A DNA stretch of 28,326 bases from Acidimicrobiales bacterium (GCA_046596815.1 JBKJLU010000197.1:1-28326), one strand, 5' to 3'; positions 2,463 through 22,083 are shown, counted from the stretch's first letter. Numbers and translations: made by a program. The notes: generated from the sequence alone by a model not told the origin.

Positions 2463-3173
2463 TCAGGCCGACCGGCCCGGCCGGCCCGGCCGACTCTTGC
2501 GTTCGAGCTGTGCGACCAAGCGGATCAGGGGCAACGTGATGATCAGATAGGCGATGCCGCCGGCGACCAACGCCGAGCTGTTGGACCGGGCGTTGGCGAA
2601 GTCACGGGCGAACTTGGTGATCTCCTTCCCCCCCGCCAGGGTGCCGAGCACCGCCAGCAACGACGTGTCCTTGAACAGCAGGACGAGTTCGTTGGTCAGC
2701 GGGGGGATGACCAGCCGGAACGCCTGGGGCAGGATCACCTCACGCATCGCCACCCACCGCCGCATCCCAAGCGATCGGGCCGCCTCCATCTGGCCACCGG
2801 GCACACCTTCGATGCCCGCCCGGAAGGTCTCGGCCATGTAGGCCCCGCCGACCAACGACAACGCCAGGCAGCCGGGGAAGTATTTGGGGAAGGGGAACTG
2901 CCAGCCGGTGGCGATGGGGATGCCGAAGCCGATGAAGATGATCGTCAGCAACGCGGGCAGGCCGCGCAGCGTGTCGGTGAAGACGGCGGCTGGCCACCGC
3001 ACCCACCGGGTGCCGCTCAATCGGGCCAACGCCACGAGCAGGCCGATGGTCAGTCCGCCCGTGAAACTGAACAGGGTGAAGACCAGCGTGTTCTTGGCGC
3101 CCTCGGTCAGCAGCTCCGGGAGCATGTCCCGGATGATCGAGAGGTTGAAGAACTCGTCGAAGAAGGTGCTCAG
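2463..3173 (-). CDS. Polar amino-acid ABC transporter permease (HisM/GlnP family)
   Basis: Motifs FTDTLRGLPALL, AYMAETFRAGI, EAA loop EAARSLGM, PPLTNELVLLFKDTSL. The first canonical start is ATG 3125; a CTG at 3173 overlapping the upstream stop is proposed as the real start. Confidence 0.92.
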   Translation of the reverse strand: MSTFFDEFFNLSIIRDMLPELLTEGAKNTLVFTLFSFTGGLTIGLLVALARLSGTRWVRWPAAVFTDTLRGLPALLTIIFIGFGIPIATGWQFPFPKYFPGCLALSLVGGAYMAETFRAGIEGVPGGQMEAARSLGMRRWVAMREVILPQAFRLVIPPLTNELVLLFKDTSLLAVLGTLAGGKEITKFARDFANARSNSSALVAGGIAYLIITLPLIRLVAQLERKSRPGRPGRSA

Positions 3174-3985
3174 TTCGACTTCGCCTGCGCTCCGAGGTAC
3201 TCCTTCAGGATCTGGTCGTAGGTGCCATCGCTGCGCAGTTCAGCCAGCGCAGCGTCGACCTTCTCGAGCAACTTCTTGCTCTGCTTCGGGATGACGAAGC
3301 CGTACGCCTCGGCCTCGTTGGCTTCGAAGGTCTTCGACACGGCCGTATCGCCGGTGGTCTCGGCGTTGTAGGAGTTGATGGGGAAGTCCTGGACGACGCC
3401 GTCGATCTGCTTGGCCTTCAAGGCGGTGAACAGCTCGTCGGCCCCGGTGAACTCCTTCACCTCGACGCCCGCCTTGGCCGCCTCGGCCGTGGCGAACTCG
3501 GCGCCGGTGGTTTCGGACTGCACGCCGATCGTCTTGCCCTTGAGGCTGGCGAAATCGGTGAACGTGGTTGCGTCCTCCTTGCGCACCAGCAGCGACTGGC
3601 TGATCTCGAAGTAGCCCTCGGAGAAGTTGTTCTCCTTCTTGCGCTCGTCCGTGATCGACACCGACGAGGCGATGAGGTCGCAGTTCCCCGCGGCCAACGC
3701 CGCGAAGATGCCGTCGAAGTCGGTGTCGCGGAAGTCGGCCTCGAGGCCGAGCTTCTCGGCGATGGCCTTGACCAGATCGATGTCGATGCCCTTGACCTCG
3801 CCGTCTTCTTCGTATTCGAACGGGGCGTACGGAATGTCGGAGCAGGCGGTGAGCTTGCCGTCCTCGACGGTGGAGATCTCCGACGTCGACTCCGCTTTGG
3901 GACTGCTCTCCGAGCCGCAGGCGGCGAAGGAGAGGAGGGCGACGAGAGCGAGAGCGAGTGCGGAGCGGCGGGGGGAACGCATCAT
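3170..3985 (-). CDS. Polar amino-acid ABC transporter substrate-binding lipoprotein (PBPb / family 3)
   Basis: ATG 3985 with SD AAGGA. Signal peptide and lipobox (LLSFAACG); motifs YAPFEY, GIDIDL, FDGIFAAL, SITDERK, GVQSETTG, GTYDQI. Confidence 0.92.
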   Translation of the reverse strand: MMRSPRRSALALALVALLSFAACGSESSPKAESTSEISTVEDGKLTACSDIPYAPFEYEEDGEVKGIDIDLVKAIAEKLGLEADFRDTDFDGIFAALAAGNCDLIASSVSITDERKKENNFSEGYFEISQSLLVRKEDATTFTDFASLKGKTIGVQSETTGAEFATAEAAKAGVEVKEFTGADELFTALKAKQIDGVVQDFPINSYNAETTGDTAVSKTFEANEAEAYGFVIPKQSKKLLEKVDAALAELRSDGTYDQILKEYLGAQAKSN

Positions 3986-4713
3986 GGTTGGCTTCCTTCG
4001 GAGAAGAGGTCGAGTTGGTCGGGGTCGGTACGCGGCGGTCGGGGAAGGCCCCAGACCAGGTGATCCATGAACACCCAGGAACGACGATGTATCGACGTCG
4101 GTCCGTAGGCCCGAAGCGCCGACTTGTGGCGAGGACACGGATAGCCCTTGTTGAGCTCGAAGTCGTAGGCGGGAAAGTGGGGCGCTTCTTCGCGCATCAT
4201 CCGGTCACGCGTCACCTTGGCGAGAATCGAGGCGGCGGCGATCGAGAGACACGTGGCGTCTCCCTTGATGACCCGTTGCGTCGTGCCGCGACCGATGAAA
4301 TCCCAGTTGCCGTCGACGAGCACCTTGTCGGGCTCGCCGACGCCCAGTCCGTCGATGGCACGGCGGGCGGCAAGTTTTTGCGCAGCGGTCATGCCGAGGT
4401 CGTCGCACTCCTGCTGCGACGCATGGCCCACCGACCAGGCCTGGCACCAACCGGCCACGCGCTCGAAGAGCTGTTCGCGCTCTCGCTCGGTGAGCATCTT
4501 CGAATCGCGGACCTTGTAGACCCGCCGATCCTTTGGCAGCACGGCGGCGCCCACGGTCAGCGGGCCCGCCCACGCACCCCGCCCGACCTCATCGACCCCG
4601 ACGACGACGTCGTGTCCCGAAGCCCACAGCGCCCGCTCGAGCACGAGGGAAGGAGCGTCCTTCTTCGTGGGCTTGCGCTTCATCCGCAGTGCGGGTGGCG
4701 AGCCACCTCTCAC
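3982..4713 (-). CDS. rnhB: Ribonuclease HII
   Basis: Motifs VGVDEVGRGAWAGP, VRDSKML, VLVDGN, KGDATCLSIAAASILAKVTRD, NKGYP; the acidic catalytic residues are present. Start is GTG 4713 or ATG 4683. The stop overlaps the next ATG (ATGA). Confidence 0.95.
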   Translation of the reverse strand: MRGGSPPALRMKRKPTKKDAPSLVLERALWASGHDVVVGVDEVGRGAWAGPLTVGAAVLPKDRRVYKVRDSKMLTEREREQLFERVAGWCQAWSVGHASQQECDDLGMTAAQKLAARRAIDGLGVGEPDKVLVDGNWDFIGRGTTQRVIKGDATCLSIAAASILAKVTRDRMMREEAPHFPAYDFELNKGYPCPRHKSALRAYGPTSIHRRSWVFMDHLVWGLPRPPRTDPDQLDLFSEGSQP

Positions 4714-4741
4714 GAGATCACCAGCGTCATTCCCGGCGACG

Positions 4742-5782
4742 TTACCGGCTCGCTCCTTCGCAGAGTTCGACCGCCGCTTCGCCCTCGATCACGCGACCGA
4801 TCACGACGAAGCCAGCGTGGGCAGCCAGGTGCTCGGCGGCAGCCGGCGACACCGACGCCAGTAATCCGCCCGAGGTCTGGGGGTCGTAGGCGATGGCCTC
4901 GAGCGCCTCGGAGACCGTCGTGCGAACTCGGCCCTCGAGGTGCGTGCGGTTCCGGGGATCGCCGCCCGTGCGGGTGCCACCCTCGGCGAGGCGCAGCGCA
5001 CCCGGATAGAGCGGGAGCAAGTCCGCTTCGAAGCGCAACACCGAGCCGGAGCGCTCGGCCATTTCCCAGCCATGGCCGAGGAGCCCGAAGCCGGTCACAT
5101 CGGTGACGGCATGGGGCGCCTCGCCGCCCGGGAGATTGGCCAGAGCCTCGGCGGCCGCCTTGTTCAACGTGCGCATGCGCAGGATGGCGGTTGCCTTCTC
5201 TTCTTCGGTGCCAGCGGCGAGGACGATGCCCGTACCCAACGGCTTCGAGAGCACGAGCACGTCGCCGGGGAGGGCGCCCGCCTTGGTCCAGATGCGGTCG
5301 GGATGGACGAGTCCCTGGACGGCCAACCCGAAGATCGGCTCCTCGGATCGGATGGTGTGGCCGCCGCCGACGGCGCCGCCGGCTTCGGCGACGACCTGCC
5401 CGGCGGCCGTGAGGATGGCCTCGATAGCGGCGATCGGCATCCGCTCAGGAAACGCGGAGATGTTGAGGGCGAGCACGACGCGCGCTCCCATGGCGAACAC
5501 GTCGCTACAGGCGTTGGCGGCGGCGATGGCGCCGAAGTCGCCGGGATCATCGACGAGGGGAGGAAAGAAGTCGGTGGTCGACACCATGGCCAGGTCGTCG
5601 GCCACCCGATACACGGCGGCGTCGTCGAATGGCGCAAGTCCTACCAAAAGCGCTGGATCCGTGGATGCGGCCAGGTCACGCACCAGCGCCGATAGGGGCG
5701 CGGCGCCCCACTTGGCCGCGCATCCGCCGCAGGCCGTCCACTCCGTCAGACGGATGGGGTCGGAGGTGATCGAGTCGGCCAT
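4742..5782 (-). CDS. selD: Selenide, water dikinase (selenophosphate synthetase), Cys-type
   Basis: ATG 5782. N-terminal LTEWTACGGCAAK (catalytic Cys and Lys); DDAAVY, STTDFFPPLVDDP, AAANACSDVFAMG, GGHTI, LSKPLGTG, TDVTGFGLLGH, DPQTSGGLL. Confidence 0.95.
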   Translation of the reverse strand: MADSITSDPIRLTEWTACGGCAAKWGAAPLSALVRDLAASTDPALLVGLAPFDDAAVYRVADDLAMVSTTDFFPPLVDDPGDFGAIAAANACSDVFAMGARVVLALNISAFPERMPIAAIEAILTAAGQVVAEAGGAVGGGHTIRSEEPIFGLAVQGLVHPDRIWTKAGALPGDVLVLSKPLGTGIVLAAGTEEEKATAILRMRTLNKAAAEALANLPGGEAPHAVTDVTGFGLLGHGWEMAERSGSVLRFEADLLPLYPGALRLAEGGTRTGGDPRNRTHLEGRVRTTVSEALEAIAYDPQTSGGLLASVSPAAAEHLAAHAGFVVIGRVIEGEAAVELCEGASR

Positions 5783-5912
5783 GTGTCCAGTCTGGTCTTT
5801 CAAGATGAATTCCTGGCACCAGCCCTTGCCACGAGCGCGGAACGCACCCAGAATGGGCACCTCATCGGGGGCGTTCAGAACGCGGACTTCCCCCCGAACG
5901 AAGGGTCCGGTC

Positions 5913-6113
5913 ATGACGCTCGAACTGCAACCCGGTACCGAGGTGGAAGTGAAATGCACCTTCGATGCCAGTTGGAAGCGTGGATTCGCCGTGGAGGGCG
6001 CTTCGGAGCAGGGCTACCTGATCCGTCGGCGGTCGGACGACTCGGTGCTCCCGACGGCCTTCGCCCCCGACACCGTGCGGCCGGCGGACGTCGTCGCCGA
6101 CCGCTGGATCTGA
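5913..6113 (+). CDS. Small conserved hypothetical protein (66 aa, predicted SH3/KOW-like beta-barrel)
   Basis: MTLELQPGTEVEVKCTFDASWKRGFAVEGASEQGYLIRRRSDDSVLP has a short-strand beta pattern and GC-biased codons, and fills the gap between selD and the GH38 gene. Confidence 0.65.
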   Translation: MTLELQPGTEVEVKCTFDASWKRGFAVEGASEQGYLIRRRSDDSVLPTAFAPDTVRPADVVADRWI

Positions 6114-6150
6114 CCTCGGCCCCGGCCCGCCGGAGCCGTACGCTCGGTCG

Positions 6151-8811
6151 ATGAACTCCGAGCTGGCGCGAACAACCGTCGCCATCGTCCCGCACACCCA
6201 CTGGGACCGGGAGTGGTACGCCCCGTTCCAGACGTTCCGACTGCGGCTGGTCGACCTCCTCGACGAGTTTCTCCCGGCGCTCGAGGACGACCTGTCCTAC
6301 GCCCGCTTCCTGCTCGACGGGCAGATGGCCGTCGTCGACGACTACCTCGAGGTGCGACCCGAGGCCGAGGCGATGCTGCGACGCCTCGCGGCCACCGGGC
6401 GGGTGGCCATGGGGCCTTGGTACACGCTGCCCGATGAGTTCCTGGTCTCGGGCGAGACCCACATCCGCAATCTCCAGCTCGGGCTCGAGCGGGCGGCGGC
6501 GTTCGGTGGCGCCATGGACGTGGGCTACCTGCCCGACATGTTCGGCCACGTCGCCCAGATGCCACAGATCCTGAGCCAGTTCGGGTTCGGGCACACCGTC
6601 TTGTGGCGAGGCGTCCCGGCGGCCGTCGACCGCACCGCCTTCCATTGGAGCGCTCCCGACGGCACCACCATCCGGGCGCAGTACCTCGCACGTGGCGGTT
6701 ACGGCAACGGCGCCGCCATCCCCGATGACGCCAAAGCCCTCGTCCGGCGTATCGCCGCCCACGAACGCGAGCTGGGCGACATGCTCGTCGGCGGCATCCT
6801 CTTCATGAACGGCACCGACCATCAGGTGCCGCAGGCCTGGCTGGGCAGGGTCGTCGCCGAGGCCAACGAGATCCAGGACGACTACCACTTCGTGGTCACG
6901 TCGCTGGCCGAGTATCTCAACGGTCCGGCCGCCGCCACCGAGGGTCTGGCGGCGTGGACCGGCGAGTTACGCTCGGGTGCCCGGGCCAACCTGCTCATGG
7001 GCGTGGGCTCGAATCGGGTCGACACCAAACAGCTGGCGGCGCGGGCCGAGCGGGCGCTCGAGCGGATGGCCCAGCCGCTGTGCGCACTCTTCCTTCCTTC
7101 CGATGCATGGCCGTCGTCGTTGCTCGACCTCGCGTGGCGCGAGGTCATTCGCAACGCCGCCCACGACTCGATCTGTGCGTGCTCGCACGACGAGGTCGTC
7201 GACGCCGTGAACCACCGGTATGCCGAGGCCAGGCAGATCGCCGACGGGCTCGGTGATCGGGCGCTTCGAGCGCTCGGCCGATCGATGGTCGACGCCGGGC
7301 CGGTGATCGTCAACCCCAGCGCCGTTCCACGGAGCGGCCTGGTCGAGGTCGTCATCGACGACGACACGCCCCTGGCCGGGACACAGGTCTTACGAGCTCG
7401 GCCGGCAGGCCCGACGGAGAGCCGCCGCATGCGTCCATCGGACGTGGCCTCGCTGCTCGGCCAGATCCGGGGCCAACGCTTCAGCGACAACTTCTTCGTG
7501 ACCTCGCTGTCCGTCGAAGATCGCGAAGACGGGCCCGAAGTGGTCTTCCATCTCGACACCAAGCCGGCCGTCGACGCCAACGTCGAGGAGACCCGACGAG
7601 AGTTGTACGCGGTGCTGGGTTCGTCCGAGCACGAGTGGTTCCACGTGCGTATGCATCGCCCGCCGATGCAACGTCTCCTGGCACGCGTCGAAGACGTCGC
7701 CGGGTACGGCTGGCAGGCCTGGTCGGCCGACGCAGCGGCGACCTCCCATCCCGTGGTCGTGTCCGACGACGGACTGGCGATGGGCAACGGGCGGGCCGTC
7801 CTCTCCATCGATCCGGATTCGGGGACGTTCACCCTCGACGGGGTCGCCGGGATGGGCCGACTCGTCGACGACGGCGAGGCCGGCGACACCTACAACTACT
7901 GCCCGCCGACGACCGACTCGGTCATCGACACCCCGACCGCCGTCGATGTCGTGGTGATCGAGCGCGGTCCCGTCCGCGGCATCGTCGCCGTCGACCGGAC
8001 GTATGTGTGGCCCGAGCGGGTCGATGACTCCACTGGCACCCGCGTCGGCGAACGAACGGTCGTGGTGCGCAGCCTGCTCGAGCTGCATGCGGGCGAGCGA
8101 CTCGTGCGCGTCACCACCAGTTTCGACAACCACGTGCGCGATCACCGCCTGCGGGCATGGTTCCCTCTCGGCGAGCGCGTCGACGCCAGCCGGGCCGAGT
8201 GCGCCTTCGCCGTCGTCGAGCGCGGGCTCTCCGCCGAGGGAGGCCCCAGCGAAGCTCCTCTGCCGACCTTTCCCTCGCGCCGGTTCGTTTCCGCGGGCAC
8301 GGTCACCGTGCTCCACGAAGGCCTGCTCGAGTACGAACTCGTCGACGGCGGCGCGGCGTTGGCCTTGACGCTGGTGCGGGCCAACGGCTGGCTCTCCCGG
8401 GGCCCGATGGCCACCCGTCCCGAGCCTGCCGGGCCGGTCGTGCCTCTGGAAGGACCGCAACTGCAGCGCCGGCTCGAGGTGCGCTACGCCGTGCAGGTCG
8501 GCCCGGCGGACCCCTATCGGCTCGTCGACGAGGCCTTCGTTCCCCTGGCCGTCGTCGTCGCTCCCGGCGGCGGGTCTCGTCCCTCGACGGGTCAAGAGCT
8601 GTCGATCGAGGGGGCCGAGGTGTCGGCCCTGCGTCGGGCCCCCGGCGGACTCGAGGTGCGGGTGTTCAATCCGACGAACGACGAGGCGACGGTGCGAACG
8701 GCCGGCCGCCGAGGGTGGCTCGTCGATCTCCGGGGCCGGCCGATCGAACCCTTCGAGGGTTCGTTCGCATTGCGCCCCTGGCAGATCGCAACGGCCCGCC
8801 TCGACGACTGA
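6151..8811 (+). CDS. Glycoside hydrolase family 38 alpha-mannosidase (MngB-like)
   Basis: Zn-binding PHTHWDREWY, LLDGQ, GPWYTLPDEFLVSGE, nucleophile region GYLPDMFGH, AHDSICACS. TACGCT lies 6 nt before the ATG, suggesting a leaderless transcript. Confidence 0.93.
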   Translation: MNSELARTTVAIVPHTHWDREWYAPFQTFRLRLVDLLDEFLPALEDDLSYARFLLDGQMAVVDDYLEVRPEAEAMLRRLAATGRVAMGPWYTLPDEFLVSGETHIRNLQLGLERAAAFGGAMDVGYLPDMFGHVAQMPQILSQFGFGHTVLWRGVPAAVDRTAFHWSAPDGTTIRAQYLARGGYGNGAAIPDDAKALVRRIAAHERELGDMLVGGILFMNGTDHQVPQAWLGRVVAEANEIQDDYHFVVTSLAEYLNGPAAATEGLAAWTGELRSGARANLLMGVGSNRVDTKQLAARAERALERMAQPLCALFLPSDAWPSSLLDLAWREVIRNAAHDSICACSHDEVVDAVNHRYAEARQIADGLGDRALRALGRSMVDAGPVIVNPSAVPRSGLVEVVIDDDTPLAGTQVLRARPAGPTESRRMRPSDVASLLGQIRGQRFSDNFFVTSLSVEDREDGPEVVFHLDTKPAVDANVEETRRELYAVLGSSEHEWFHVRMHRPPMQRLLARVEDVAGYGWQAWSADAAATSHPVVVSDDGLAMGNGRAVLSIDPDSGTFTLDGVAGMGRLVDDGEAGDTYNYCPPTTDSVIDTPTAVDVVVIERGPVRGIVAVDRTYVWPERVDDSTGTRVGERTVVVRSLLELHAGERLVRVTTSFDNHVRDHRLRAWFPLGERVDASRAECAFAVVERGLSAEGGPSEAPLPTFPSRRFVSAGTVTVLHEGLLEYELVDGGAALALTLVRANGWLSRGPMATRPEPAGPVVPLEGPQLQRRLEVRYAVQVGPADPYRLVDEAFVPLAVVVAPGGGSRPSTGQELSIEGAEVSALRRAPGGLEVRVFNPTNDEATVRTAGRRGWLVDLRGRPIEPFEGSFALRPWQIATARLDD

Positions 8812-8835
8812 ACAGCTACCGAACGAACTGCATCG

Positions 8836-9456: not shown

Positions 9457-9498
9457 CAAGTCTGCCCGTTCTGTCCGCACCGGTCGGTCATGCGTCCC

Positions 9499-10575
9499 TC
9501 ATCCGAGCGAGGGATGTCCACGCCGGCAGCGCCAGAGGCGCACCCGGCCGATGTCCTTCAGGGTGCGGGCGCGGAGCCCCCGAAAGGCGTAACGACCGTC
9601 GTCGATGAGGGCGTCGTGCACGGTCTCGGACACCACGACGGCGCCAGGGATGGCGATGTTCACCGTCCGGCTGGCCAGGTTGACGACGGGCCCGTAGTAA
9701 TCGCCCTCGCGTGCGAGCACCTCACCGGCCGCCAGGCCGACCCGCACATCGGAGAGCAACTCGTCGTCGGCATAGGCCTCCGAGAGCGACAACGCCGTCT
9801 CGACGGCCGCGCCGATGTCCTCGACCACGAACATCACCTCGTCGCCGATCATCTTGGCCACGCGCCCTCCGTGAATGGCCACCTGATCGAAGGCGAGGGT
9901 CTCGAATCGGCTGACCACCTCGGCCAACTCGACGTCGGAGATCTGCTGGCTCAGCGCGGTGTAGCCCACCAGGTCGGCGAAGCCCACGGCGAGCTGGACG
10001 GTCGGGCGACCCGATCGGTCGTCGGCCATCAACGCCCGACGACTGGCGGCCTGCAGGTGGCGACGCCACACGTAGTCGAGCAACCGTGACTGGGTTTCGA
10101 GCGTTCTGTCGGCCGACATCGTGAAGAGGTCCCGCTCGAGGGGACGACCCTGTCGTGCCCGCTGATCACTGCTGCGCACCATGGCCTCGGCGATCCGGGC
10201 GAGCGACGATCCGATCACCCGAGTCAATTGCATCGAGACGTCCACGCTGGTGAAGCCCATCGTGAGCATGGCGTTCACCGTTGCGAGGGCCTCGACGTCG
10301 GCGTCATTGAACATGCGGTCGTCGTCGCCGACGTCCGGGAATCCCAGCGCCCGCCAATAACGCTGGGCGAGCGTTCGATCGATGCCGACCGACTCCGAGA
10401 GTTCCGCGGGGGTGTACAAGCCCGGACCCGGGAGTGCGGCTGCAGCCACGGCCAGAAGACTCTCGAGGCCGTTGTCGCGGGCACGACGGATCTCATCGGC
10501 GGCGACGCCCCATTCGACGAGGCGGGCATCGGCCTCGTTGCGCAGGACTTGCTCGTCGTCCCCGGGCGAGCTCAG
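9499..10575 (-). CDS. Class III adenylate cyclase with N-terminal regulatory domain (Rv1264/Rv2212-like architecture)
   Basis: Motifs VGFADLVGYT, KMIGDEVM (Lys for ATP specificity), DYYGPVVNLASR; the canonical catalytic residues are present. First canonical start is GTG 10449; the proposed start is CTG 10575, overlapping the upstream stop. Confidence 0.92.
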   Translation of the reverse strand: MSSPGDDEQVLRNEADARLVEWGVAADEIRRARDNGLESLLAVAAAALPGPGLYTPAELSESVGIDRTLAQRYWRALGFPDVGDDDRMFNDADVEALATVNAMLTMGFTSVDVSMQLTRVIGSSLARIAEAMVRSSDQRARQGRPLERDLFTMSADRTLETQSRLLDYVWRRHLQAASRRALMADDRSGRPTVQLAVGFADLVGYTALSQQISDVELAEVVSRFETLAFDQVAIHGGRVAKMIGDEVMFVVEDIGAAVETALSLSEAYADDELLSDVRVGLAAGEVLAREGDYYGPVVNLASRTVNIAIPGAVVVSETVHDALIDDGRYAFRGLRARTLKDIGRVRLWRCRRGHPSLG

Positions 10576-12674
10576 GTGAACGATCCTTCGCTCGCCGGTG
10601 GGCGCAATCCTGGCGCGGGCGCAAGGAGCGCCTCACCCTTGGACTCCGCCGTCGACCAGTCCGGATCGAGCCCGGGCGCCGTGAGCCGCAGCGGCGCCTC
10701 GACGAGACGCTGCTTGAGGTCCCAGAGCAGGGCCGGGCGATCGTCGTGCCAACGCACGGCAAAGGAAAGCGTTCCCAGATGGGTGGGCGCGTCGTGCACT
10801 TCGAGGTTCTGGCCACGCCAGGCCTCGGGGAGCAGCGAGCACATGGCCAGCGTGCCGTCGTCGGTTTCCCGCACGAGCAGGTTGCGAACCAGTCGGAGGA
10901 AGGCAGAGGCCGCCGGACCGTGGTGGCCGTCTCCTCCACACCCGCCGCCCGAACCCGGATGGATGGCCTCCGGCCACGTGAAGGTCTCGGTCGCTGACTC
11001 GACGAGCCAGACCAGACGGTCGAGGCATCGACGATCGCCGGACGCCAATTCGACCTCCGCCAGCTGCACGGTGAGCGACGGGTCGAGCCCGGGCTCGCCG
11101 CCCTGGGGTCGGTACACGGCCGATCCGACACACGACCGCTCCCGTATGGCGTCCGCCGACGCCACCACGAAGGGATGGTCGGCGGCCAGCAACCGCAACG
11201 GCGCGTACGCCATCAGGTTGTCCAGCGTCACGGTGTCGATCCGACCCGTCGGTCCCGCAGGCATCAACCGCGCCCCGAGCTGCTCGACCGCCCGCGTCAT
11301 CGACGGTTCGAGACCGGCGCGGCGACGATCCGCCCACACCGCACACTCGGCCGCGAGGCGGTCTTCGCCCAATGCCCCCAGCAGTGCAGCGGCGTCGAGC
11401 AGTCCCCGAAGCGACCAGAAGTCCTCGGCCCTCCGGCGGCGGCGCTCGATCCATCGGGCGCTGCGTATGACGGCGTCGGCGTCGATGGCCTCGAGCGATC
11501 CGGTGAGGCGCCAGTGTTGGGCCATCGTGAAGAGCGCCGCCCCCGACGCGCTGGCGTCGCCGCGGTGATCGAGGAAGCGCCCGTCGACCCGCAGACGGGA
11601 AGGGAATCGGCGCACGACCTCGGCGCTCTCGGCGTGGAAGCCGAAAAGATCGAGCGCTCCGAGTTCGGCCGCCGCATCGCGAAACGAGAACGCCGCGGAA
11701 GTCACGGGCTCGGTCACCGACTCGTCTCCCGGGTGCAACGCCAGGAGGTAGCGGCGATTGGCTTCAATGGCCAAGGCCAACCGACCCTCGGGCAGCACGA
11801 GCCGCAGACCGCGTGACGACGTCTGCGCCTGCCAGGCGCGAACGACGTCGTCACTCGACGGGACGTCGTCGAGTGGCACGGCTTCGGGACCATCGACGCG
11901 GCGGTCGGGTCGTCGCCGCCGAGAGCCGGTGCCGCGTTCGAGAGGGACACCGACCCGCAATGTCGCCGTGTGGGCCAGCGGAAACACGAACGCCGCCGTT
12001 GCCAAGCCCGAGGGGCAACGCAGATCGGAAGGAAAGTCGCCCCCCGTGTCCTCGGCGACGACACGACGAGCCACGTCCCCATCAACGAGGGTCGATGCCA
12101 CTGCGCCCTGTGGACGCTTCGGAAGCAGCAACGCCGAATGGCCGTCGACGCTCACGGTGTGCTCGTGCAGCTCCACGTGCTCGACGACGGCCAGACCCTC
12201 GGGGTTGTAGGGCCGGATGCTCAGCACCACGGCGATGGGCGTGGTCGTTCGGTTGGTGATCTCGGCGATGGCCATGGGCCGGGGCGAGGGCACGGCATAC
12301 ACGCGATGGACGGCGTCGCCGCCCCGAATGCGCATCGTCGTCTCGACCACCGGGGTTTCGTCCACGAGCTGTTGGCGAACCGCTGCCTCTCGAGACGGGA
12401 AGTGCCACCGATCCTCGCCGAGGATCCACCAGTCGAGTGACCAGCCCCCCTTCCAGGGCGTGAGCAACCCGCGCGGGTCGACGATGCCTCGGTGGGACGA
12501 TGCCACGGTCCCGACCGCAGTCCAGTTGCGGAGGGTGACGTTGTCCGGCGTTGCTGACGATCGCCCATACGGAACATACGTCGGGGACTGAGGGTCGAGC
12601 TGACGCTCGAGCCAGTGAGGCCAGATCCAGTCGGTTCCCAACTGACGACCGGATCGTCGGGTCTTCGGCCTCAC
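10572..12674 (-). CDS. Conserved hypothetical protein, probable (alpha/alpha)6 six-hairpin glycosidase-like fold
   Basis: 700 aa, with a GTGA overlap with the gpsA stop. Trp-rich N-terminal domain (DWIWPHWLERQLDP, RNWTAVG, WSLDWW), helical core (FRDAA, DFWSLRGL, TWPEAIHP...GDGHH) and a C-terminal beta region (LEVHDAPTHLGTLSFAVRW). The fold is inferred by recall, not searched. Confidence 0.7.
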   Translation of the reverse strand: MRPKTRRSGRQLGTDWIWPHWLERQLDPQSPTYVPYGRSSATPDNVTLRNWTAVGTVASSHRGIVDPRGLLTPWKGGWSLDWWILGEDRWHFPSREAAVRQQLVDETPVVETTMRIRGGDAVHRVYAVPSPRPMAIAEITNRTTTPIAVVLSIRPYNPEGLAVVEHVELHEHTVSVDGHSALLLPKRPQGAVASTLVDGDVARRVVAEDTGGDFPSDLRCPSGLATAAFVFPLAHTATLRVGVPLERGTGSRRRRPDRRVDGPEAVPLDDVPSSDDVVRAWQAQTSSRGLRLVLPEGRLALAIEANRRYLLALHPGDESVTEPVTSAAFSFRDAAAELGALDLFGFHAESAEVVRRFPSRLRVDGRFLDHRGDASASGAALFTMAQHWRLTGSLEAIDADAVIRSARWIERRRRRAEDFWSLRGLLDAAALLGALGEDRLAAECAVWADRRRAGLEPSMTRAVEQLGARLMPAGPTGRIDTVTLDNLMAYAPLRLLAADHPFVVASADAIRERSCVGSAVYRPQGGEPGLDPSLTVQLAEVELASGDRRCLDRLVWLVESATETFTWPEAIHPGSGGGCGGDGHHGPAASAFLRLVRNLLVRETDDGTLAMCSLLPEAWRGQNLEVHDAPTHLGTLSFAVRWHDDRPALLWDLKQRLVEAPLRLTAPGLDPDWSTAESKGEALLAPAPGLRPPASEGSFT

Positions 12675-15048: not shown

Positions 15049-15060
15049 GACCAGAACAAA

Positions 15061-15088
15061 ACGGAGGGGGCCCGTGGGCCCCCTCCGT
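15061..15088. terminator. Intrinsic terminator hairpin between convergent genes
   Basis: Perfect 13-bp inverted repeat ACGGAGGGGGCCC-GT-GGGCCCCCTCCGT, followed on the minus strand by TTTGTT. It lies between the PIG-L and H1-like stops. Confidence 0.8.
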
Positions 15089-15111
15089 GCACATCGTTCA
15101 GAAAGGCCGAG

Positions 15112-15555: not shown

Positions 15556-15579
15556 TGGTGGCGTCTTGCCTTTCGCTCG

Positions 15580-15984
15580 CTACTTCTTCTTGGTGGACTT
15601 GGTGGCCTTTTTGGCCGGTGCCTTCTTGGCTGCGGTCGACTTTGCAGTCGTAGCGGCCTTCTTTGCCGGTGCTGCCTTCTTCGCGGGTGACGACTTCTTG
15701 GCGGCGCTCTTTCCATTGAGCGTCGTCTTGAAGGCAGAGCCCGGGGAGAATCGGACGCCCTTGCTTGCTGCGATCTTCACGGGGGCGCCGGTCTGTGGGT
15801 TACGGCCCATGCGCGCCGTGCGCGACGTCGGGTTGAACGTCCCGAAGCCGAGAACGGCTACACGGTCACCACTCTTGGTCGCATCCATAACGGCATCGAC
15901 GAAGGCATTCAGCGCGCCCTCTGCCTGGCGCTTGTCGAGTCCGGCCCGCTGGACCATCTCGTCGACGAGTTCACCTTTGTTCAC
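15580..15984 (-). CDS. hup: HU family DNA-binding protein with Lys/Ala-rich C-terminal tail (HupB/HupS-like)
   Basis: MNKGELVDEM...GDRVAVLGFGTF...RMGRNPQTGAPVKI...VRFSPGSAFK, then an AKK-rich tail. SD AGGAGG lies 5 nt before GTG 15984. Confidence 0.95.
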   Translation of the reverse strand: MNKGELVDEMVQRAGLDKRQAEGALNAFVDAVMDATKSGDRVAVLGFGTFNPTSRTARMGRNPQTGAPVKIAASKGVRFSPGSAFKTTLNGKSAAKKSSPAKKAAPAKKAATTAKSTAAKKAPAKKATKSTKKK

Positions 15985-16028
15985 CGCCACCTCCTGGCGT
16001 TGTTGGGGAAGTTGAGGAAGTTGTTGCA

Positions 16029-16057
16029 ATGAAAGAGGTTTTGCGCGGTGAGGTCAA
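16029..16057 (-). promoter_or_regulatory. Housekeeping-sigma promoter for hup
   Basis: Minus strand TTGACC (16057-16052), a 17-nt spacer, then TTTCAT (16034-16029), about 45 nt upstream of the start. Confidence 0.5.
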
Positions 16058-16087
16058 GCACTCTCCGCCGTCGCGTCAGCCCAGAAG

Positions 16088-16149
16088 CCTTGCGCTACAA
16101 GGGTTTCGGAAAGCGAGATGCGGTGGATCCCTTGTTCTGTAAGGGTTTC
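16088..16149. promoter_or_regulatory. Pair of imperfect palindromes CCTTG-N5-YAAGG(GTTTC), 42 bp apart
   Basis: CCTTG-CGCTA-CAAGGGTTTC (16088-16107) and CCTTG-TTCTG-TAAGGGTTTC (16130-16149), in the hup divergent intergenic region. Confidence 0.55.
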
Positions 16150-16154
16150 AGGCC

Positions 16155-16385
16155 ATGAGCGACTTACCCGATGGTCGATACGACGTCATCGTCGTCGATG
16201 CAGAAACATTCGACGAGACCACCATTCGCATCGAGTTGGCGATGGTCGACGGTGACGCGCGCGGTGATGTCATCACCATTCGCGGTCCGCGTCGCGCGTC
16301 GGATCCGATCGCGCTTCTCGGACTTCCCGGTGTTCTCATCGTGGAGAACGGCGTGCCTTCGTTTCACGTGGAGCGGGGTGCATGA
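16155..16385 (+). CDS. Small conserved hypothetical protein (76 aa)
   Basis: MSDLPDGRYDVIVVDAE...IRIELAMVDGDARGDVITI...DPIALLGLPGVLIVENGVP is a beta-rich sequence resembling small proteins I recall from Acidimicrobiia (not searched). Confidence 0.65.
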   Translation: MSDLPDGRYDVIVVDAETFDETTIRIELAMVDGDARGDVITIRGPRRASDPIALLGLPGVLIVENGVPSFHVERGA

Positions 16386-16412
16386 CAACGAGGTGGTAGG
16401 TGTTCACCTTGC

Positions 16413-18488
16413 TTGGGTACATGGCGCGATGTGCGTTGGACCGCCCGACTCGTTCTTGCCATCGTCGTTGCAACGACCTTGCTCGCGTCGGGACTCGGAC
16501 TGACGTACCTCGGTGCGTCGACCGTTCGAGCAGCCGCACGTCATGACGGACTTCCAGAGATCGACCTGCGACCGCTGGCTCAGCGAAGCGAGATCGTCGC
16601 AGCCGACGGGACACTGCTGTCGGCGTTGTTCGAAGAGGACCGGGTTCCGGTCACGCTCGACCAGGTGCCCGACGTTCTCGTCGATGCCGTCATCGCGGTC
16701 GAAGACAGTGCGTTCTTCGACCACCGGGGTGTCAGTGTGCGCGGTCTCGCCCGCGCGGCAAAGGCGAATGTCACCGAAGGCGGAGTCGACCAGGGCGGAT
16801 CGACGATTACCCAGCAACTCGTGAAGAACGGCATCTTGAACGCCGACCGGTCGTACGACCGCAAGGCGAAGGAGGCCGTGCTCGCCTTCCGCATGGAGCA
16901 CGAACTCTCGAAAGAGCAGATCCTCGAGACCTACCTCAACACGGTGTACTTCGGGCAAGGCGCGTACGGCGTGCACGCCGCTGCCCGTCGATTCTTCGCC
17001 AAGCCCCTCGCCGAGGTGGGCCTGGCCGACGCCGCGCTGTTGGCCGGCATGATCTCCAGCCCCCAGGCCTATGACCCCGTACGACGTCCCGATGCGGCGA
17101 AGGCCCGTAGGAGTCATGCCCTTCGACGCATGGTGGGCCACGGCGTCGCCACACAGCCAGAGGCCGACGCCGCCGATCGGGCTCCACTACCGACGGAGGT
17201 GCAACGCGACGAGGCCCAGCCGAACGATCACTTCACCGAAGAAGTGCGTCGGCTCCTCCTGGGCGATGCGCGCCTCGGTGCGACCCCGGCGGAGCGATCG
17301 GCGCTGCTGTTGCGGGGCGGCGTGCGAGTGGAGACGACTCTCGACCCGGTTCTGCAGTCGCAGGCCGAACAGGCCGTGAGGGAGAAGCTCCCGCCAAGTG
17401 AGTTCACGGCTGCGCTGGTGTCGATCGATCCGGCTGACGGCGCCGTTCGTGCACTCGTGGGGGGCTCGAACTTCGGCGACGCCAAGTTCAACCTCTCGAC
17501 CCAGGGTCGCCGGCAGATGGGGTCATCGTTCAAGACCGTCGCCCTCGCGGCATGGATCGCCGACGGCCACTCCTCCGAAGACCTCGTCGACGCGACCGCG
17601 CCGTGCCAGTTCCCGATGCCAGCGCCCGAGCCGGCTTGGACCGTCGACAACTATGACGGCGGCAGCGGGCAGGTCCTCGTCACCAATCTCAGGGAAGCCA
17701 CGATCAAGTCATCGAACTGTGCCTTCGCCCGAGTTTCGCTGGCGCTCGGACCGCAGAAGATCGTCGACATGGCGAAGAAGCTCGGCATCAAGGGTGACCT
17801 GCCGGTCTTCAACTCCGTCGTCCTCGGCACCGGGGAGGCCACGCCACTCGAAGTTGCGTCGGTGTACGCCACGTTGGCGGCCGAAGGAATGCGCCGCGAG
17901 CCCATGTTCATCCGCAGAGTGATCGCCAACGACGGGACGATGCTCTTCGAGAACCAGATCATCGAAGAACGGGTGCTCGAACCGCAGATGGCCTGGACGG
18001 TGACCGACGTACTTCGGGGCGTCGTCGATCGCGGCACCGGGCGCAAGGCCGGAATCGGTCGCCCTGTCGCTGGTAAGACGGGCACGGCGCAGGAGTGGCG
18101 GGACGCCTGGTTCGCCGGATACACCCCGCAGTTGGCGACGGCGGTATGGATGGGTCACCCGAAGGGTCAGATCTCCATGCTCGACGTCGGTGGCATTCGA
18201 GTGACCGGCGGTTCCTACCCCTCGATGATCTGGTCGCAGTACATGGGGATGGCCATGGCTCCTCTCCCCGTGGTCGACTTCGCACCACCCGACGCCTTGG
18301 CGTGGCCTCCGAACAACTGGATCGGCATGCCTCCGCCTGTCCTTCCGCCGGGGTTCGTCCTCCCTCCGCATCTCGTTCCGCCGCCTCCGGTGCCCGCCGA
18401 GGTACCCCCGCTCCCCGACTCGCCGACCACCTCGACCACCTCGACAACCTCGACAACCTCGACGACGCAACGCAAGGGCAAGGGCTGA
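16413..18488 (+). CDS. Class A penicillin-binding protein (transglycosylase plus transpeptidase) with Pro/Thr/Ser-rich tail
   Basis: N-terminal TM helix. GT51 motifs EDSAFFDHRGV, GGSTITQQLVKN, RKAKE, YLNTVYFGQGAYG. Transpeptidase motifs SSFK, SSN, KTGT. Start is TTG 16413 or GTG 16431. Confidence 0.93.
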   Translation: MGTWRDVRWTARLVLAIVVATTLLASGLGLTYLGASTVRAAARHDGLPEIDLRPLAQRSEIVAADGTLLSALFEEDRVPVTLDQVPDVLVDAVIAVEDSAFFDHRGVSVRGLARAAKANVTEGGVDQGGSTITQQLVKNGILNADRSYDRKAKEAVLAFRMEHELSKEQILETYLNTVYFGQGAYGVHAAARRFFAKPLAEVGLADAALLAGMISSPQAYDPVRRPDAAKARRSHALRRMVGHGVATQPEADAADRAPLPTEVQRDEAQPNDHFTEEVRRLLLGDARLGATPAERSALLLRGGVRVETTLDPVLQSQAEQAVREKLPPSEFTAALVSIDPADGAVRALVGGSNFGDAKFNLSTQGRRQMGSSFKTVALAAWIADGHSSEDLVDATAPCQFPMPAPEPAWTVDNYDGGSGQVLVTNLREATIKSSNCAFARVSLALGPQKIVDMAKKLGIKGDLPVFNSVVLGTGEATPLEVASVYATLAAEGMRREPMFIRRVIANDGTMLFENQIIEERVLEPQMAWTVTDVLRGVVDRGTGRKAGIGRPVAGKTGTAQEWRDAWFAGYTPQLATAVWMGHPKGQISMLDVGGIRVTGGSYPSMIWSQYMGMAMAPLPVVDFAPPDALAWPPNNWIGMPPPVLPPGFVLPPHLVPPPPVPAEVPPLPDSPTTSTTSTTSTTSTTQRKGKG
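18429..18464 (+). repeat. Tandem 9-bp repeat x4 (ACCTCGACN) encoding (TST)n in the PBP tail
   Basis: ACCTCGACC ACCTCGACA ACCTCGACA ACCTCGACG. Confidence 0.85.
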
Positions 18489-18534
18489 GCACTGCGTCAC
18501 GAAGACCGGTGAATCGGGGAAGGATGCAGACGTC

Positions 18535-19602
18535 ATGTCGACGCCCGACGCCCACGCAGATCACGACCACCACGTTCATGACGGCGACCAAGGGCACGGG
18601 CATGAGCACGAGGAGGCGGGCAGGGTCCGAGGGCTCCTCGGACTGAACCGCCGCCACAGCCACGACTCGGCCGCCAAGATCGATCGGGCCCTCGAGACGA
18701 GTGCCGACGGTATTCGAGCCCTCAAGTGGTCACTGATCGGCCTCGGCATCACCGCCATCCTCCAAGGCGGCATCGTCGTGCTCACCGGCTCGGTCGCGCT
18801 GCTCGGTGACACCCTCCACAACGTCGCCGACGCGTTGACGGCTCTTCCCCTCTGGGTGGCGTTCCGCCTCGGTCGGCGCAGGCGGACCCGTCGCTATACC
18901 TACGGGTACGGACGGGCCGAGGATCTCGCCGGCTTGGGCATCGTGGTTGCGATCCTGGCCTCGGCGGCGTTTGCCGGATACGAGTCGATCATCCGGCTGT
19001 TCAACCCACAACCGGTTCGCTATGTCGGCGTGGTGATGGCCGCCGGGTTCATCGGATTCGCTGGAAACGAGTTGGTCGCGCAGTACCGCATCCGTGTCGG
19101 TCGGCGGATCGGCTCGGCCGCGCTGGTGGCCGATGGACTCCACGCCCGCACCGACGGGTTCACCTCGCTGGCCGTCGTGGTCGGCGCCATTGGCGTCGCT
19201 CTCGGTTACGAGCAGGCGGATGCGTTGGTGGGGCTCGTGATCACCGCCGCCATCCTCGTGGTCCTCCGGTCGGCGGCGCGCGACGTCTATCGCCGGCTCA
19301 TGGATGCCGTCGATCCCGAACTCGTCGACACCGTCGAACGGGTCGCCGGCGGTGTCGACGGCGTGAAGGAGGTCGAGGACGTGCGCATCCGCTGGGTCGG
19401 GCACCGGTTGCGGGCCGAGGTCGAGATCGCCGTCGGTCCTGCACTCAGCGTCGTCGACGGCCACACAATCGCCAACAACACCTCGCACGCCCTCCTGCAC
19501 GAGGTGCCGCGCCTGACGTCGGCGCTCATCCATGTCAGCCCCGCAGGACCCGAGGGGGCGGCGAGCCACGCCGATCTCGCCCACCACGACGACATCTTCT
19601 GA
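18535..19602 (+). CDS. Cation diffusion facilitator (CDF) metal efflux transporter
   Basis: His-rich N-terminus (HADHDHHVH...HGHEHE), SVALLGDTLHNVAD, YGYGRAEDLAG, SAALVADGLHARTD, and the C-terminal dimerisation domain. The HxxxD/HxxxD site A suggests Zn preference. Confidence 0.93.
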   Translation: MSTPDAHADHDHHVHDGDQGHGHEHEEAGRVRGLLGLNRRHSHDSAAKIDRALETSADGIRALKWSLIGLGITAILQGGIVVLTGSVALLGDTLHNVADALTALPLWVAFRLGRRRRTRRYTYGYGRAEDLAGLGIVVAILASAAFAGYESIIRLFNPQPVRYVGVVMAAGFIGFAGNELVAQYRIRVGRRIGSAALVADGLHARTDGFTSLAVVVGAIGVALGYEQADALVGLVITAAILVVLRSAARDVYRRLMDAVDPELVDTVERVAGGVDGVKEVEDVRIRWVGHRLRAEVEIAVGPALSVVDGHTIANNTSHALLHEVPRLTSALIHVSPAGPEGAASHADLAHHDDIF

Positions 19603-19608
19603 GAGTCT

Positions 19609-20379
19609 TCAGGCGGATTGGCCGTGGCGCCCGGCGCCCGCCGCGAACCGAGCTGCGCCGGCCTGCGTCTCGCCTGATCGGATCGTCTCGAGGCCCAGCC
19701 CGGTTTCGCGCAACAGCGCGTCGTCCGTCGACAGGTCCCACTGCTCATAGGCCGAGCGGCGGTCGCTTCGGAGGCAACGTTGCGGAAGGGCCGACAGCTC
19801 TGCGGCCAGTTCTATCGCCGCCGCCCGCGCTCCTCCCGTCGCGACCGATCGATTGACGAGACCCATGGCGACGGCCTCGTCACCCGAGACACCCCGGCCA
19901 GTCAGCATCAGATCCATTGCGCGGCTCTGTCCGATGAGGCGGGTCAGCCGGATGGTGCCGCCGTCGACCAAGGGCACGCCCGACCACCGGCAGTAGACGC
20001 CGAACACCGCATCAGCCGCGGCCACCCGCAGGTCGCACCACAATGCAAGTTCGAGGCCGCCGGCCACGGCGTGGCCCTCGACGGCGGCGATGACCGGCTT
20101 TGAGAGCAGCATCCGGGTCGGCCCCATCGGACCGTCACCCTCGAGCCGCACTTTGTTCCCGTTCCCGCCGGCGACCGCTTTGAGATCGGCGCCGGCGCAG
20201 AAGGTTCCGCCAGCCCCCGTCAGGACGGCGACGGACAGATCGTCGTCGCTGTCGAAACGTCGAAACGCGTCGGCCAGTGCTGCCGCCGTCGGTCCGTCGA
20301 CGGCATTGCGCACCTCGGGCCGATCGATGGTGATGACGGCGACAGGCCCCTCGGAACTGAACTGGACGGTCTCGGTCAT
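19609..20379 (-). CDS. Enoyl-CoA hydratase/isomerase (crotonase) family protein
   Basis: Motifs ITIDRPEVRNAVD, FCAGADLK, KPVIAAVEGHAVAGGLELALWCDLR, GVPLVDGGT. ATG 20379 overlaps the DUF971 stop (ATGA). Confidence 0.93.
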   Translation of the reverse strand: MTETVQFSSEGPVAVITIDRPEVRNAVDGPTAAALADAFRRFDSDDDLSVAVLTGAGGTFCAGADLKAVAGGNGNKVRLEGDGPMGPTRMLLSKPVIAAVEGHAVAGGLELALWCDLRVAAADAVFGVYCRWSGVPLVDGGTIRLTRLIGQSRAMDLMLTGRGVSGDEAVAMGLVNRSVATGGARAAAIELAAELSALPQRCLRSDRRSAYEQWDLSTDDALLRETGLGLETIRSGETQAGAARFAAGAGRHGQSA

Positions 20380-20735
20380 CGGCTGACGCACCAGGCGCGT
20401 AGGGAGTCGAAAGGGAAGATGCCGGTGCCGTGGCCGTCGTTCCACGCAAAGCTGATACCCCAATTGCCGACGAGTTCGGCGTTGAGAATCATCACCTCGG
20501 GAGGTGATCCCTCACGCGGCCACGCGACCTGACCGACGCTTCGCAGGTCACGGCAGGCGGCGCACGGACAGTTGACCCGCAGCTCTTCGTTGGCGAAGAC
20601 GCACACGTGACCATCGCCGAACGTGATCGTGACGCCGGTTTCGCGATCGACATCGACCTTGTCCGCGCGCGTCTGCGTGCCTCCGGCGTCGGAAGGCCTT
20701 GGCTCGTCGTCGTGCTCCGGGCGGGCGTCGCTCAT
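20376..20735 (-). CDS. DUF971 / GBBH-like N-terminal domain protein
   Basis: Motifs ITFGDGH, LRVNCPCAAC, VGNWGISFAWNDGHGTGIFPFDSL. SD GGAGGAG before ATG 20735; ATG 20756 is an alternative start. Confidence 0.88.
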   Translation of the reverse strand: MSDARPEHDDEPRPSDAGGTQTRADKVDVDRETGVTITFGDGHVCVFANEELRVNCPCAACRDLRSVGQVAWPREGSPPEVMILNAELVGNWGISFAWNDGHGTGIFPFDSLRAWCVSR

Positions 20736-20763
20736 GACGGCAGTCTCCTCCATCACCGGGGGC

Positions 20764-22083
20764 TCACCGACGCTCGCGGCCGACCACCGACCAGTGCGGT
20801 CCGGCGAAACGCCAGAGGTTCCCGGCCAGGCGGGCCACCATCAGCAGGGCGAGTGAACCCCAGAGGTAGGAGAGGGAAAGGTCGAGGCGAAGCACGATCA
20901 GCGCCGCCGGAATGAAGACGACGATGCCACTCATCGCCATGGCCTTGGCCAGGAAGCGGAGATCACCGGCGCCGATGAGGATGCCGTCGAGCACGAAGAC
21001 GATGGCGTTGATGGGCTGGAGAACGGCCACGACGACGAGCACGTCCAAGGCCATGGCGATCACCTCGCGGTCGTCGGTGAAGACCGGCACCAAGAGGGCT
21101 CGGGCAGCAAGGACGACGGCGGCGAAGACCACCCCAGCGACGATCCCCCACTGCACCATGCGGCGTCCGGCGGCGCGAGCCTCGGTCGCCTCTCCGGCAC
21201 CGAGGAAGCGACCGATCATCGCCTGCCCGGCGATGGCGATGGCGTCGAGAACGAGGGCCAGGAAGCTCCACAGTTGAAAGGCGATCTGGTGGGCCGCCAG
21301 CTCGATCGATCCGAGGCGGCTGGCGACGGCGGTGGCGACGGCGAGGGCCGCCAACAACGATCCCGTCCGGATAAACAGGTCGCGCCCGACGACCAGCAGC
21401 GCCCGAATGCGGCGGCCGACTGGCCCCAGGCCGACTCCGGCCGACCGCACATTGTTCACGAGGATTCGCAGATAGACGGCGGCGGCAGCCGTCTGGGCGA
21501 AGACGGTGGCCGCCGCCGATGCGGCGATGCCCATGCCGAGGCCGTAGACCAGCACGAGCTCGAGGATCAGGTTCAAGACGTTCGAGGCCACGGCGACGAA
21601 GAGGGTGCGTCGGGTGTCCTGCAGCCCGCGGAGATATCCGACCCCCACCAAGGCGATGAGCACGGCGGGCGCGCCGAGCGCGCTGATGCGCAGGTACGTG
21701 ACGGCGTTGACGCGTACGGGCGCGGACGCCCCGAAGACGCCAACAGCCGCCGGCGCGAACAGGACACCGAGCACCAGCAGGAGGGTCCCGATGACGACCG
21801 CGAGCCAAAGCCCCTGGACCGCTTGGTGGGCGGCGGCCCGCTCGTCGCCGGCACCCACGAGCCGGGAGACCACGGCGGTGGTTCCGTAGGCGAGAAAGTT
21901 GAAGAGGAAGAATGACGTTGTGAGGATCGTGCCGGCCACGGCCAGACCGCCGAGCTGGGCGGTACCGAGATGCCCGACGACGGCGGTATCCACCAGGATG
22001 TAGAGCGGTTCGGCGGCCAACGCGCCGAGTGCCGGGACGGCCAATCGCAGGATCTGGCGGTCGTAGGGTCGGGCTGCGGGCAG
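20764..22083 (-). CDS. MATE family efflux transporter (DinF-like)
   Basis: DRQILRLAVPALGALAAEPLYILVDTAVVGHLG, FNFLAYGTT, LRGLQDTR, AAHQIAFQLWSFLALVLDA, LDGILIGAGD; about 12 TM helices. The proposed start CTG 22083 gives 439 aa. Confidence 0.92.
   Translation of the reverse strand: MPAARPYDRQILRLAVPALGALAAEPLYILVDTAVVGHLGTAQLGGLAVAGTILTTSFFLFNFLAYGTTAVVSRLVGAGDERAAAHQAVQGLWLAVVIGTLLLVLGVLFAPAAVGVFGASAPVRVNAVTYLRISALGAPAVLIALVGVGYLRGLQDTRRTLFVAVASNVLNLILELVLVYGLGMGIAASAAATVFAQTAAAAVYLRILVNNVRSAGVGLGPVGRRIRALLVVGRDLFIRTGSLLAALAVATAVASRLGSIELAAHQIAFQLWSFLALVLDAIAIAGQAMIGRFLGAGEATEARAAGRRMVQWGIVAGVVFAAVVLAARALLVPVFTDDREVIAMALDVLVVVAVLQPINAIVFVLDGILIGAGDLRFLAKAMAMSGIVVFIPAALIVLRLDLSLSYLWGSLALLMVARLAGNLWRFAGPHWSVVGRERR

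Follow-up and report, generated by a model that had tools for sequence, protein, structure and literature searches.

Bacterial genes that start with something other than ATG, GTG or TTG, the three codons called canonical throughout this work, have been described in several settings. The infC gene, which encodes initiation factor 3 (IF3), starts with AUU, AUC or AUA in E. coli and in many other bacteria, and this goes together with autoregulation by IF3. In Deinococcus deserti, N-terminal proteomics validated the CTG starts of rpsL and Deide_03051, with dnaA (ATC) and infC as further cases from this species and from Deinococcus-Thermus (Baudet et al., PMC2830850). A different line of work, by Huber, Soppa and others, deals with termination-reinitiation at 4-nt NTGA overlaps between adjacent genes, with trpBA and the coat-lysis junction of phage fr cited as examples; the starts are treated there as NTG, and CUG is not mentioned (PMC10666635). 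In the literature on CTG starts in Actinobacteria and Acidimicrobiia we found no description of the pattern reported here, which concerns three genes on a 28,326-nucleotide stretch of DNA from an uncultured soil bacterium of the Acidimicrobiales (GCA_046596815.1 JBKJLU010000197.1:1-28326; this whole stretch is referred to as the window). The three genes encode the permease of an amino-acid ATP-binding cassette (ABC) transporter, an adenylate cyclase, and an efflux transporter of the multidrug and toxic compound extrusion (MATE) type. All three lie on the minus strand, and each has a CTG (at 3173, 10575 and 22083, respectively) at its predicted start.

The window makes up contig C224 of a metagenome-assembled genome (MAG) of 2.95 Mb, 453 contigs and 68% G+C, designated G000. 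The comparisons below involve its congeners G001, G003, G004, G005 and G006, a species of another genus (G007), an outgroup from another genus of the same family (G011) and a Streptomyces-like genome (G084), along with some further genomes named where they are needed. In our view CUG probably acts in all three genes as a near-cognate start codon that the ordinary initiator tRNA recognizes, and the three would belong to a low-frequency class of starts found across the family and often coupled to the translation of an upstream gene; the reading draws on sequence comparison.

The three CTG codons and their orthologs

The permease gene (2463..3173; Pfam BPD_transp_1) encodes 236 residues when read from the CTG at 3173..3171. 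The gene before it, for a solute-binding protein (3170..4138, minus strand; Pfam SBP_bac_3, E=1e-39), ends in a TGA at 3172..3170 that overlaps this CTG. Above the CTG there are 22 open codons with no ATG, GTG or TTG among them, and the first canonical codon in frame is an ATG at 3123..3125, 16 codons below. The same aligned codon is CTG in G004, G005, G001 and in the other genus, G007; it is GTG in G011 and ATG in G020. The conservation of the amino acid sequence (LSTFLDEFFNL..) sets in exactly at the CTG codon, and the segment LSTFLDEFFNL.VIR of the extension is conserved in seven species.

The adenylate cyclase gene (9499..10575) has an Rv1264-type regulatory domain and a class III catalytic domain, and encodes 358 residues from the CTG at 10575..10573; in the residue numbers of this form, the Pfam matches are Ad_Cy_reg at 13-134 and Guanylate_cyc at 194-331. 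Here the overlapping TGA (10574..10572) terminates an open reading frame (ORF) of 700 residues (10572..12674, minus strand) that has no Pfam family and looks coding, with an in-frame G+C of about 0.83 at third codon positions and a gene call by codon log-odds. A Shine-Dalgarno-like AAGGA (10584..10588, minus strand) is located 8 nt upstream of the CTG. None of the 19 open codons above the CTG is canonical, and the first canonical codon below it, a GTG at 10447..10449, is 42 codons away and within the Ad_Cy_reg match. Four congeners (G006, G005, G004 and G001) have CTG at the aligned codon, and elsewhere the column reads ATG (G003, G011), GTG (G002, G008) or TTG (G017). All cyclase orthologs read at this junction have an NTGA overlap with AAGG or GAGG 8-9 nt upstream, whatever their start codon. 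At about 80 further Acidimicrobiales cyclase loci the start is canonical in nearly all, and CTG is confined to this genus.

The permease and cyclase junctions share the sequence CTGAGC, so that in both cases a 4-nt CTGA (3173..3170 and 10575..10572) joins the gene to a co-directional upstream gene. The MATE gene (20764..22083; 439 residues from the CTG at 22083..22081; Pfam MatE, E=1e-48) has no such overlap. Its CTG is preceded at 7 nt by the -10-like hexamer TAGTGT (22091..22096, minus strand), and no canonical start is found within 45 codons in frame upstream. The start column is CTG in G000 and G006, TTG in G007, GTG in G013, ATC in G028, and GTG with a one-codon indel in G011. The arrangement of TAGT[GC]T, 7 nt and CTG is kept in five species (G000, G006, G004, G001 and G003), which differ from one another in the spacer and in the codons following the CTG. 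Further down, the motif DR[EQ]ILRL is conserved across the order, with changes mainly at third codon positions. The first canonical codon below the CTG, a TTG at 22042..22044 (minus strand), falls inside the ILRL part of this motif (DRQILRL in the window) and is not conserved, being CTG in G006 and G004.

The three CTGs thus seem to be genuine start codons, because canonical codons align with them in orthologs and none is available upstream. This bears out the original prediction both on the presence of CTG at three predicted starts and on the two kinds of geometry, the stop overlaps with the CTGAGC context and the spacing from a -10-like element. CTG makes up 3.4% of coding codons, and the chance that all three would fall on the aligned canonical starts of their orthologs is of the order of 0.034^3 = 4e-5.

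It could be argued that these CTGs are simply Leu codons of internal appearance in untranslated DNA and that translation starts at ATG 3125, GTG 10449 and TTG 22044, as gene-finding programs take it to do; what look like N-terminal extensions would then be remnant or regulatory sequence. Canonical codons are indeed present at these places; the permease ATG is kept throughout the family, except for a CTT (Leu) in G020, and is the start in public gene calls; CTG is a poor initiator in the bacteria in which it has been tested (PMC4633059; bioRxiv 10.1101/063800); and at 68% G+C open frames run long by chance. The downstream starts would, however, come at a cost. A start at GTG 10449 would drop about 30 residues matched to Ad_Cy_reg, and a start at TTG 22044 would cut through DR[EQ]ILRL at a codon that is itself not conserved. 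In all three genes the CTG is retained in four to five related species with the frame and the length kept, and the extension peptides show equally good conservation whether the CTG-bearing species are compared with one another or with the outgroups that start there with ATG or GTG. For the permease and the cyclase, moreover, the onset of coding by codon log-odds is within 3-4 codons of the CTG. We therefore hold a downstream start in these genes to be improbable.

An artefact is far less probable still. The canonical starts could be missing through errors in assembly or sequencing, pseudogene formation or contamination, and the MAG is fragmented into its 453 contigs, 78% complete and about 5% contaminated; two MreB-like gene copies with different starts, described below, hint at strain mixture or paralogy. 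Such an origin is hard to reconcile with assemblies made independently for four or five species, in which each CTG recurs at the same place, with intact frames and a strong coding signal.

The region upstream of the MATE gene deserves a few words of its own. On the plus strand, a gene of 74 residues (22105..22329; MRTYRFYGF...; no Pfam family) diverges from the MATE gene, with its ATG 21 bp from the MATE CTG. Over its full length this gene has 84-90% identity by tblastn in four congeners, while G011 gives 74%; the antisense frame, which could be taken for an extension of MATE, gives 56-64%. Above the MATE CTG, the frame was judged noncoding because it is antisense to this better-conserved gene. 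Two other arrangements were considered and rejected. In one, MATE would have a long N-terminal extension beginning at an ATG at 22722; this frame is antisense to the better-conserved gene and is interrupted in outgroups by in-frame stops 8-25 codons upstream. In the other, a minus-strand gene at 22166..22822 would put MATE in an operon; conservation is higher for the plus-strand frame 22292..23110. The sequence CACTAT is found 7 nt before the ATG of the divergent gene and overlaps the TAGTGT of the opposite strand, which suggests a compact bidirectional promoter. A scan of the gap between the two genes for the sigma-70 consensus gave no match, that consensus being uninformative for actinobacterial promoters. 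Elsewhere in the window there is a second long Pfam-less ORF with good coding statistics (25346-27568, minus strand; about 740 residues).

Noncanonical starts in the genome and in the family

To see the three genes in proportion one has to count such starts in the whole genome, and two ways of counting had to be given up. When homology was taken to start where BLAST alignments of open-frame translations start, as many as 30% of genes, an absurd figure, came out as lacking a canonical start, because upstream genes are conserved in DNA and off-frame translations align as well. CTGA junctions by themselves also had to be discounted: at 67% of the stops in G000 that have no overlapping downstream frame, the base before TGA is C, and the 160 open-frame CTGA pairs of this genome are largely due to chance. 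Gene calls were home-made from codon log-odds and gave 2879 genes in G000; G011 was run through the same pipeline on 1.32 Mb, and 800 kb of the Streptomyces-like genome served as the control. For the reciprocal-ortholog criterion, genes had to be best hits both ways and, in the segment before the first canonical start, to show an in-frame coding signal and an identity of 50% or more.

By this criterion, conserved coding sequence upstream leaves 8 of 554 genes in G000 and 8 of 605 in G011 without a usable canonical start (~1.4%). A clear coding signal above the first canonical start was seen in 40 genes of G000, many of them with spurious antisense frames and about a dozen convincing. An internal control was restricted to junctions that lack a canonical start above and whose nearest one below is 8 or more codons off. 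The intervening stretch was coding at 5 of 20 CTGA junctions in G000 versus 1 of 71 junctions in the other frame (p=0.0017), and at 7 of 25 versus 4 of 125 when pooled with G011. The expectation that CTG starts would recur was borne out by further examples elsewhere in G000, four candidates being checked in relatives, and of the genome-wide claim this recurrence and the excess at CTGA junctions over the control stand. What finds no support is a general relaxation: more than 98% of starts are canonical, and canonical codons remain the large majority at stop-start overlaps as well; nor is three in 19 kb the rate of the genome, the actual figure being about 1% and not about 13%.

The outgroup is informative in this respect. 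In the same pipeline G011 yielded at least as many cases as G000, so that a relaxation specific to one genus was rejected as an explanation, and the feature is not special to this genome. The window permease and a hydrolase start with CTG in G000 and with GTG in G011, and there are reverse cases, a NUDIX protein, an M16 peptidase and a lipoprotein, in which G011 has CTG and G000 has GTG or ATG. The start is noncanonical in both genomes for RecR (ATA-A versus CTG-A), MreB (CTG behind GAGG) and infC (ATC). For a second ABC permease, CTG is the start in eight species from four genera, and GTG, TTG or ATG in others; this CTG is kept even in cases without an overlapping upstream stop. Among close relatives, the start of the hydrolase and of a PolX-like gene switches between CTG and GTG or ATG, and a ThiL paralog has CTG in G000 only. 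These proteins do not fit the suggestion that CTG serves to down-tune membrane and signalling proteins, since near-cognate starts are also seen in MreB, RecR, the PolX-like protein and the hydrolase, and in initiation factor 1 (IF-1) of relatives.

Some of these genes can be described more closely. RecR on contig C362 of G000 starts with an ATA that overlaps the upstream TAA, 8 nt after GGAGGG, and in G011 (C17, L168:18900-19559) with a CTG that overlaps a TGA; among 30 Actinomycetota sampled its start is canonical in almost all, and CTGA recurs in an unrelated family, in two genomes. The two MreB-like genes of G000, on C415 and C285, have near-identical N-termini, one with CTG (GAGG 7 nt upstream) and the other with GTG, and they may be paralogs or a mixture of strains or contaminants. 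A transporter of the major facilitator superfamily type on C294 (4662-5882, plus strand) has conserved N-terminal helices about 60 codons above its first canonical start, and its start is likely one of two adjacent ATH (Ile) codons.

About 8 of 11 noncanonical starts, a count that rests on our manual curation of the 40-gene list, are on stop overlaps, compared with 19% of all genes (p=1.6e-4), and this concentration points to re-initiation as the context in which a weak first base is tolerated. Such overlaps are not the only context, as shown by the CTGs led by a Shine-Dalgarno (SD) sequence in IF-1 and MreB, and by MATE. If the starts are what they seem, their concentration on stop-start overlaps would be evidence from nature that ribosomes are less selective about start codons when they re-initiate.

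There is also a practical side to these numbers. Gene finders of the Prodigal type do not offer CTG as a start, and proteins with such a start are consequently deposited either truncated or extended into upstream junk. The truncation that had been foreseen for standard annotation is on the public record for this very contig, where the permease appears as a 220-residue form starting at ATG 3125. For the cyclase, the truncation would matter functionally, with about 30 residues of the regulatory domain left out. If about 1% of genes are affected in this order, which is widespread in soil and water, the result would be a systematic error in protein families, N-terminal signals and operon models.

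Probable reading of CUG by the initiation machinery

The class of starts we propose would include roughly 1% of genes, with CTG and some ATC or ATA, across this Acidimicrobiales family, and CTG and the canonical codons would replace one another in both directions within it. For the permease and the cyclase, the ribosome that ends the upstream gene would already be in position and would re-initiate at the overlapping CTG by termination-reinitiation, helped further in the cyclase by the AAGGA 8 nt upstream. At such an overlap one base does double duty: it opens the start codon and fills the third position in the final codon of the upstream gene, a position at which C is strongly preferred in this genome of 68% G+C. 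Changes from GTG, ATG or TTG to CTG would therefore arise readily and be tolerated. The MATE mRNA would most likely be leaderless, or have a leader of one base, with transcription directed by TAGTGT, and its use of CUG would be weak and exceptional. The use of CUG, the re-initiation step and the 5' end of the MATE transcript are what we infer from the gene anatomy, positional homology, conservation and genome-wide counts described above and from a normal initiator tRNA.

This tRNA was examined in relatives: in the assembly of G000 both the initiator tRNA gene and the 16S rRNA were looked for and are not assembled. The initiator tRNAs of the congeners G001 and G004 are identical to that of the outgroup G011, and that of G003 differs by one compensated pair in the T-stem. 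All four are canonical, having the three G-C pairs (GGG/CCC), the CAU anticodon and the 1:72 mismatch, and CAG as an anticodon was found in G000 on a single tRNA, a tRNA-Leu with a long arm. An altered initiator-tRNA context, one of the causes that had been suggested, thus finds no support in three congeners. The other suggested cause, an altered IF3, was considered through the start codon of infC. On C48 of G000, infC (cut by the contig end) has an ATC start 9 nt after GAGGAG, and in G011 it also has an ATC start behind the SD sequence GAGGAG; an ATC start would make no regulatory sense unless IF3 still discriminates. The IF-1 gene (infA) has a CTG start in G011 (C16) and G004 (C219), 4 nt after GGAGGA or AGGAGGA, and a GTG start in the Streptomyces-like genome G084; the copy in G000 is cut by the contig end. 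By analogy, a CTG-started IF-1 in the relatives suggests the same kind of feedback logic as in infC.

These observations bear directly on another explanation, namely that the machinery of the whole lineage is relaxed in its discrimination and accepts CUG, AUC and AUA in Acidimicrobiales far better than in model bacteria, so that noncanonical starts would build up in every context, abundant proteins included. The ~1.4% of ortholog pairs with no usable canonical start would speak for it when compared with about 0.05% noncanonical starts in well-annotated model genomes (bioRxiv 10.1101/063800), although baselines drawn from annotation undercount. So would the CTGs that start MreB (G000, G011) and IF-1 (G004, G011) behind a good SD sequence, the second permease with its CTG in four genera even outside a stop overlap, and RecR, which is on ATA in G000, on CTG in G011 and mostly on ATG, GTG or TTG in Actinomycetota; the RecR CTGA, however, recurs in an unrelated actinobacterial family. 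The Streptomyces-like control is lower at the strict cut-off (1/672 versus 23/3665), but the difference is not significant (p=0.09). The canonical initiator tRNA, the same in G001 and G004 as in G011, and the ATC start of infC in both genera, which makes sense only with a discriminating IF3, argue against relaxation, as do the canonical codons at more than 98% of starts, the clustering of the others at stop overlaps, and the exclusion of CTG and TTG from leaderless starts. On balance we consider a lineage-wide relaxation of this extent unlikely, while a modest shift in stringency across the lineage is possible. One may go a step further and picture Acidimicrobiales, perhaps all Acidimicrobiia, as having a shifted hierarchy of starts in which CUG is a routine, selectable initiator, with the set-point maintained by feedback from a CUG-started IF-1 together with an AUC-started IF-3. 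This idea strikes us as rather unlikely; if true, CUG would serve indispensable or abundant proteins (IF-1 and MreB among them) and coupled operon genes in these bacteria, unlike in mycobacteria, which lack CUG initiation.

The exclusion from leaderless starts is seen in the sharp peak of TANNNT 6-9 nt before candidate start codons of G000, a spacing that holds for 15.5% of ATG and 9.9% of GTG, and for 0.9% of TTG and 0.8% of CTG, the same as for control codons. The enrichment of CTG 6-7 nt after TANNNT, which had been suggested as a genome-wide check, is absent, and general leaderless use of CTG was rejected since CTG is at background in this geometry. Roughly 15% of G000 genes look leaderless, with ATG or GTG only and never TTG. 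ATC is enriched 6 nt after TANNNT (3 of 70 versus 3 of 2319 for other pre-start codons, p=4.5e-4), the genes being one on C66 of G000 (45-656, minus strand) and two in G011 (C6, 32612-33499, minus strand; C17, 490-1080, plus strand). None of these has a canonical start upstream, and the next one is 15-37 codons down; the pattern hints at leaderless initiation at a 5'-AUC.

Returning to the reading of CUG by an ordinary initiator tRNA in the three genes, several points count against it and should be taken together. For MATE, the background level of CTG after TANNNT means that a leaderless CUG breaks the genome's own rule as its lone exception. In mycobacteria, CTG gave no initiation in reporters that were either leaderless or SD-led (PMC4633059) and was not enriched at Ribo-RET peaks (PMC9094748), and in E. 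coli CUG gives about 1-2% of the activity of AUG (bioRxiv 10.1101/063800). The permease junction has no clear SD sequence upstream, and ATG 3125 may serve instead of, or besides, the CTG. The quality of the MAG, the crude gene caller and the hand curation behind the overlap count are further weaknesses.

Comparison with known systems

The CTG starts themselves are added examples of a known phenomenon, and a globally relaxed discrimination is unproven. The closest parallel is that of Deinococcus. As in that genus, CTG and ATC are found on intact, conserved genes of a high-G+C lineage, are kept among relatives and are overlooked or mis-set by annotation, and infC is noncanonical. The genes are different ones, however, and are mostly at stop-start overlaps, and the share of about 1% given here comes from comparative inference.

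With respect to autoregulation of infC, the ATC behind GAGGAG in the infC of G000 and G011, and the CTG behind GGAGGA in the IF-1 genes of relatives, follow the described pattern, but the permease, the cyclase and MATE are not translation factors. The MATE gene is best compared with the leaderless mRNAs of mycobacteria (Shell et al., PMC4633059), which it resembles in having TAGTGT at 7 nt from the start, within the 6-9 nt spacing of TANNNT; it differs in starting with CTG, as ATG or GTG is needed there and both CTG and TTG are ineffective.

The coupling at NTGA overlaps, finally, is the system to which the permease and the cyclase come nearest. Both overlap the upstream TGA by 4 nt, just as the 466 ATGA, GTGA and TTGA junctions of the same genome do (213, 206 and 47 of them, respectively). 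They are set apart by having CTG as the overlapping start, and the dependence on upstream translation is in their case predicted from sequence.

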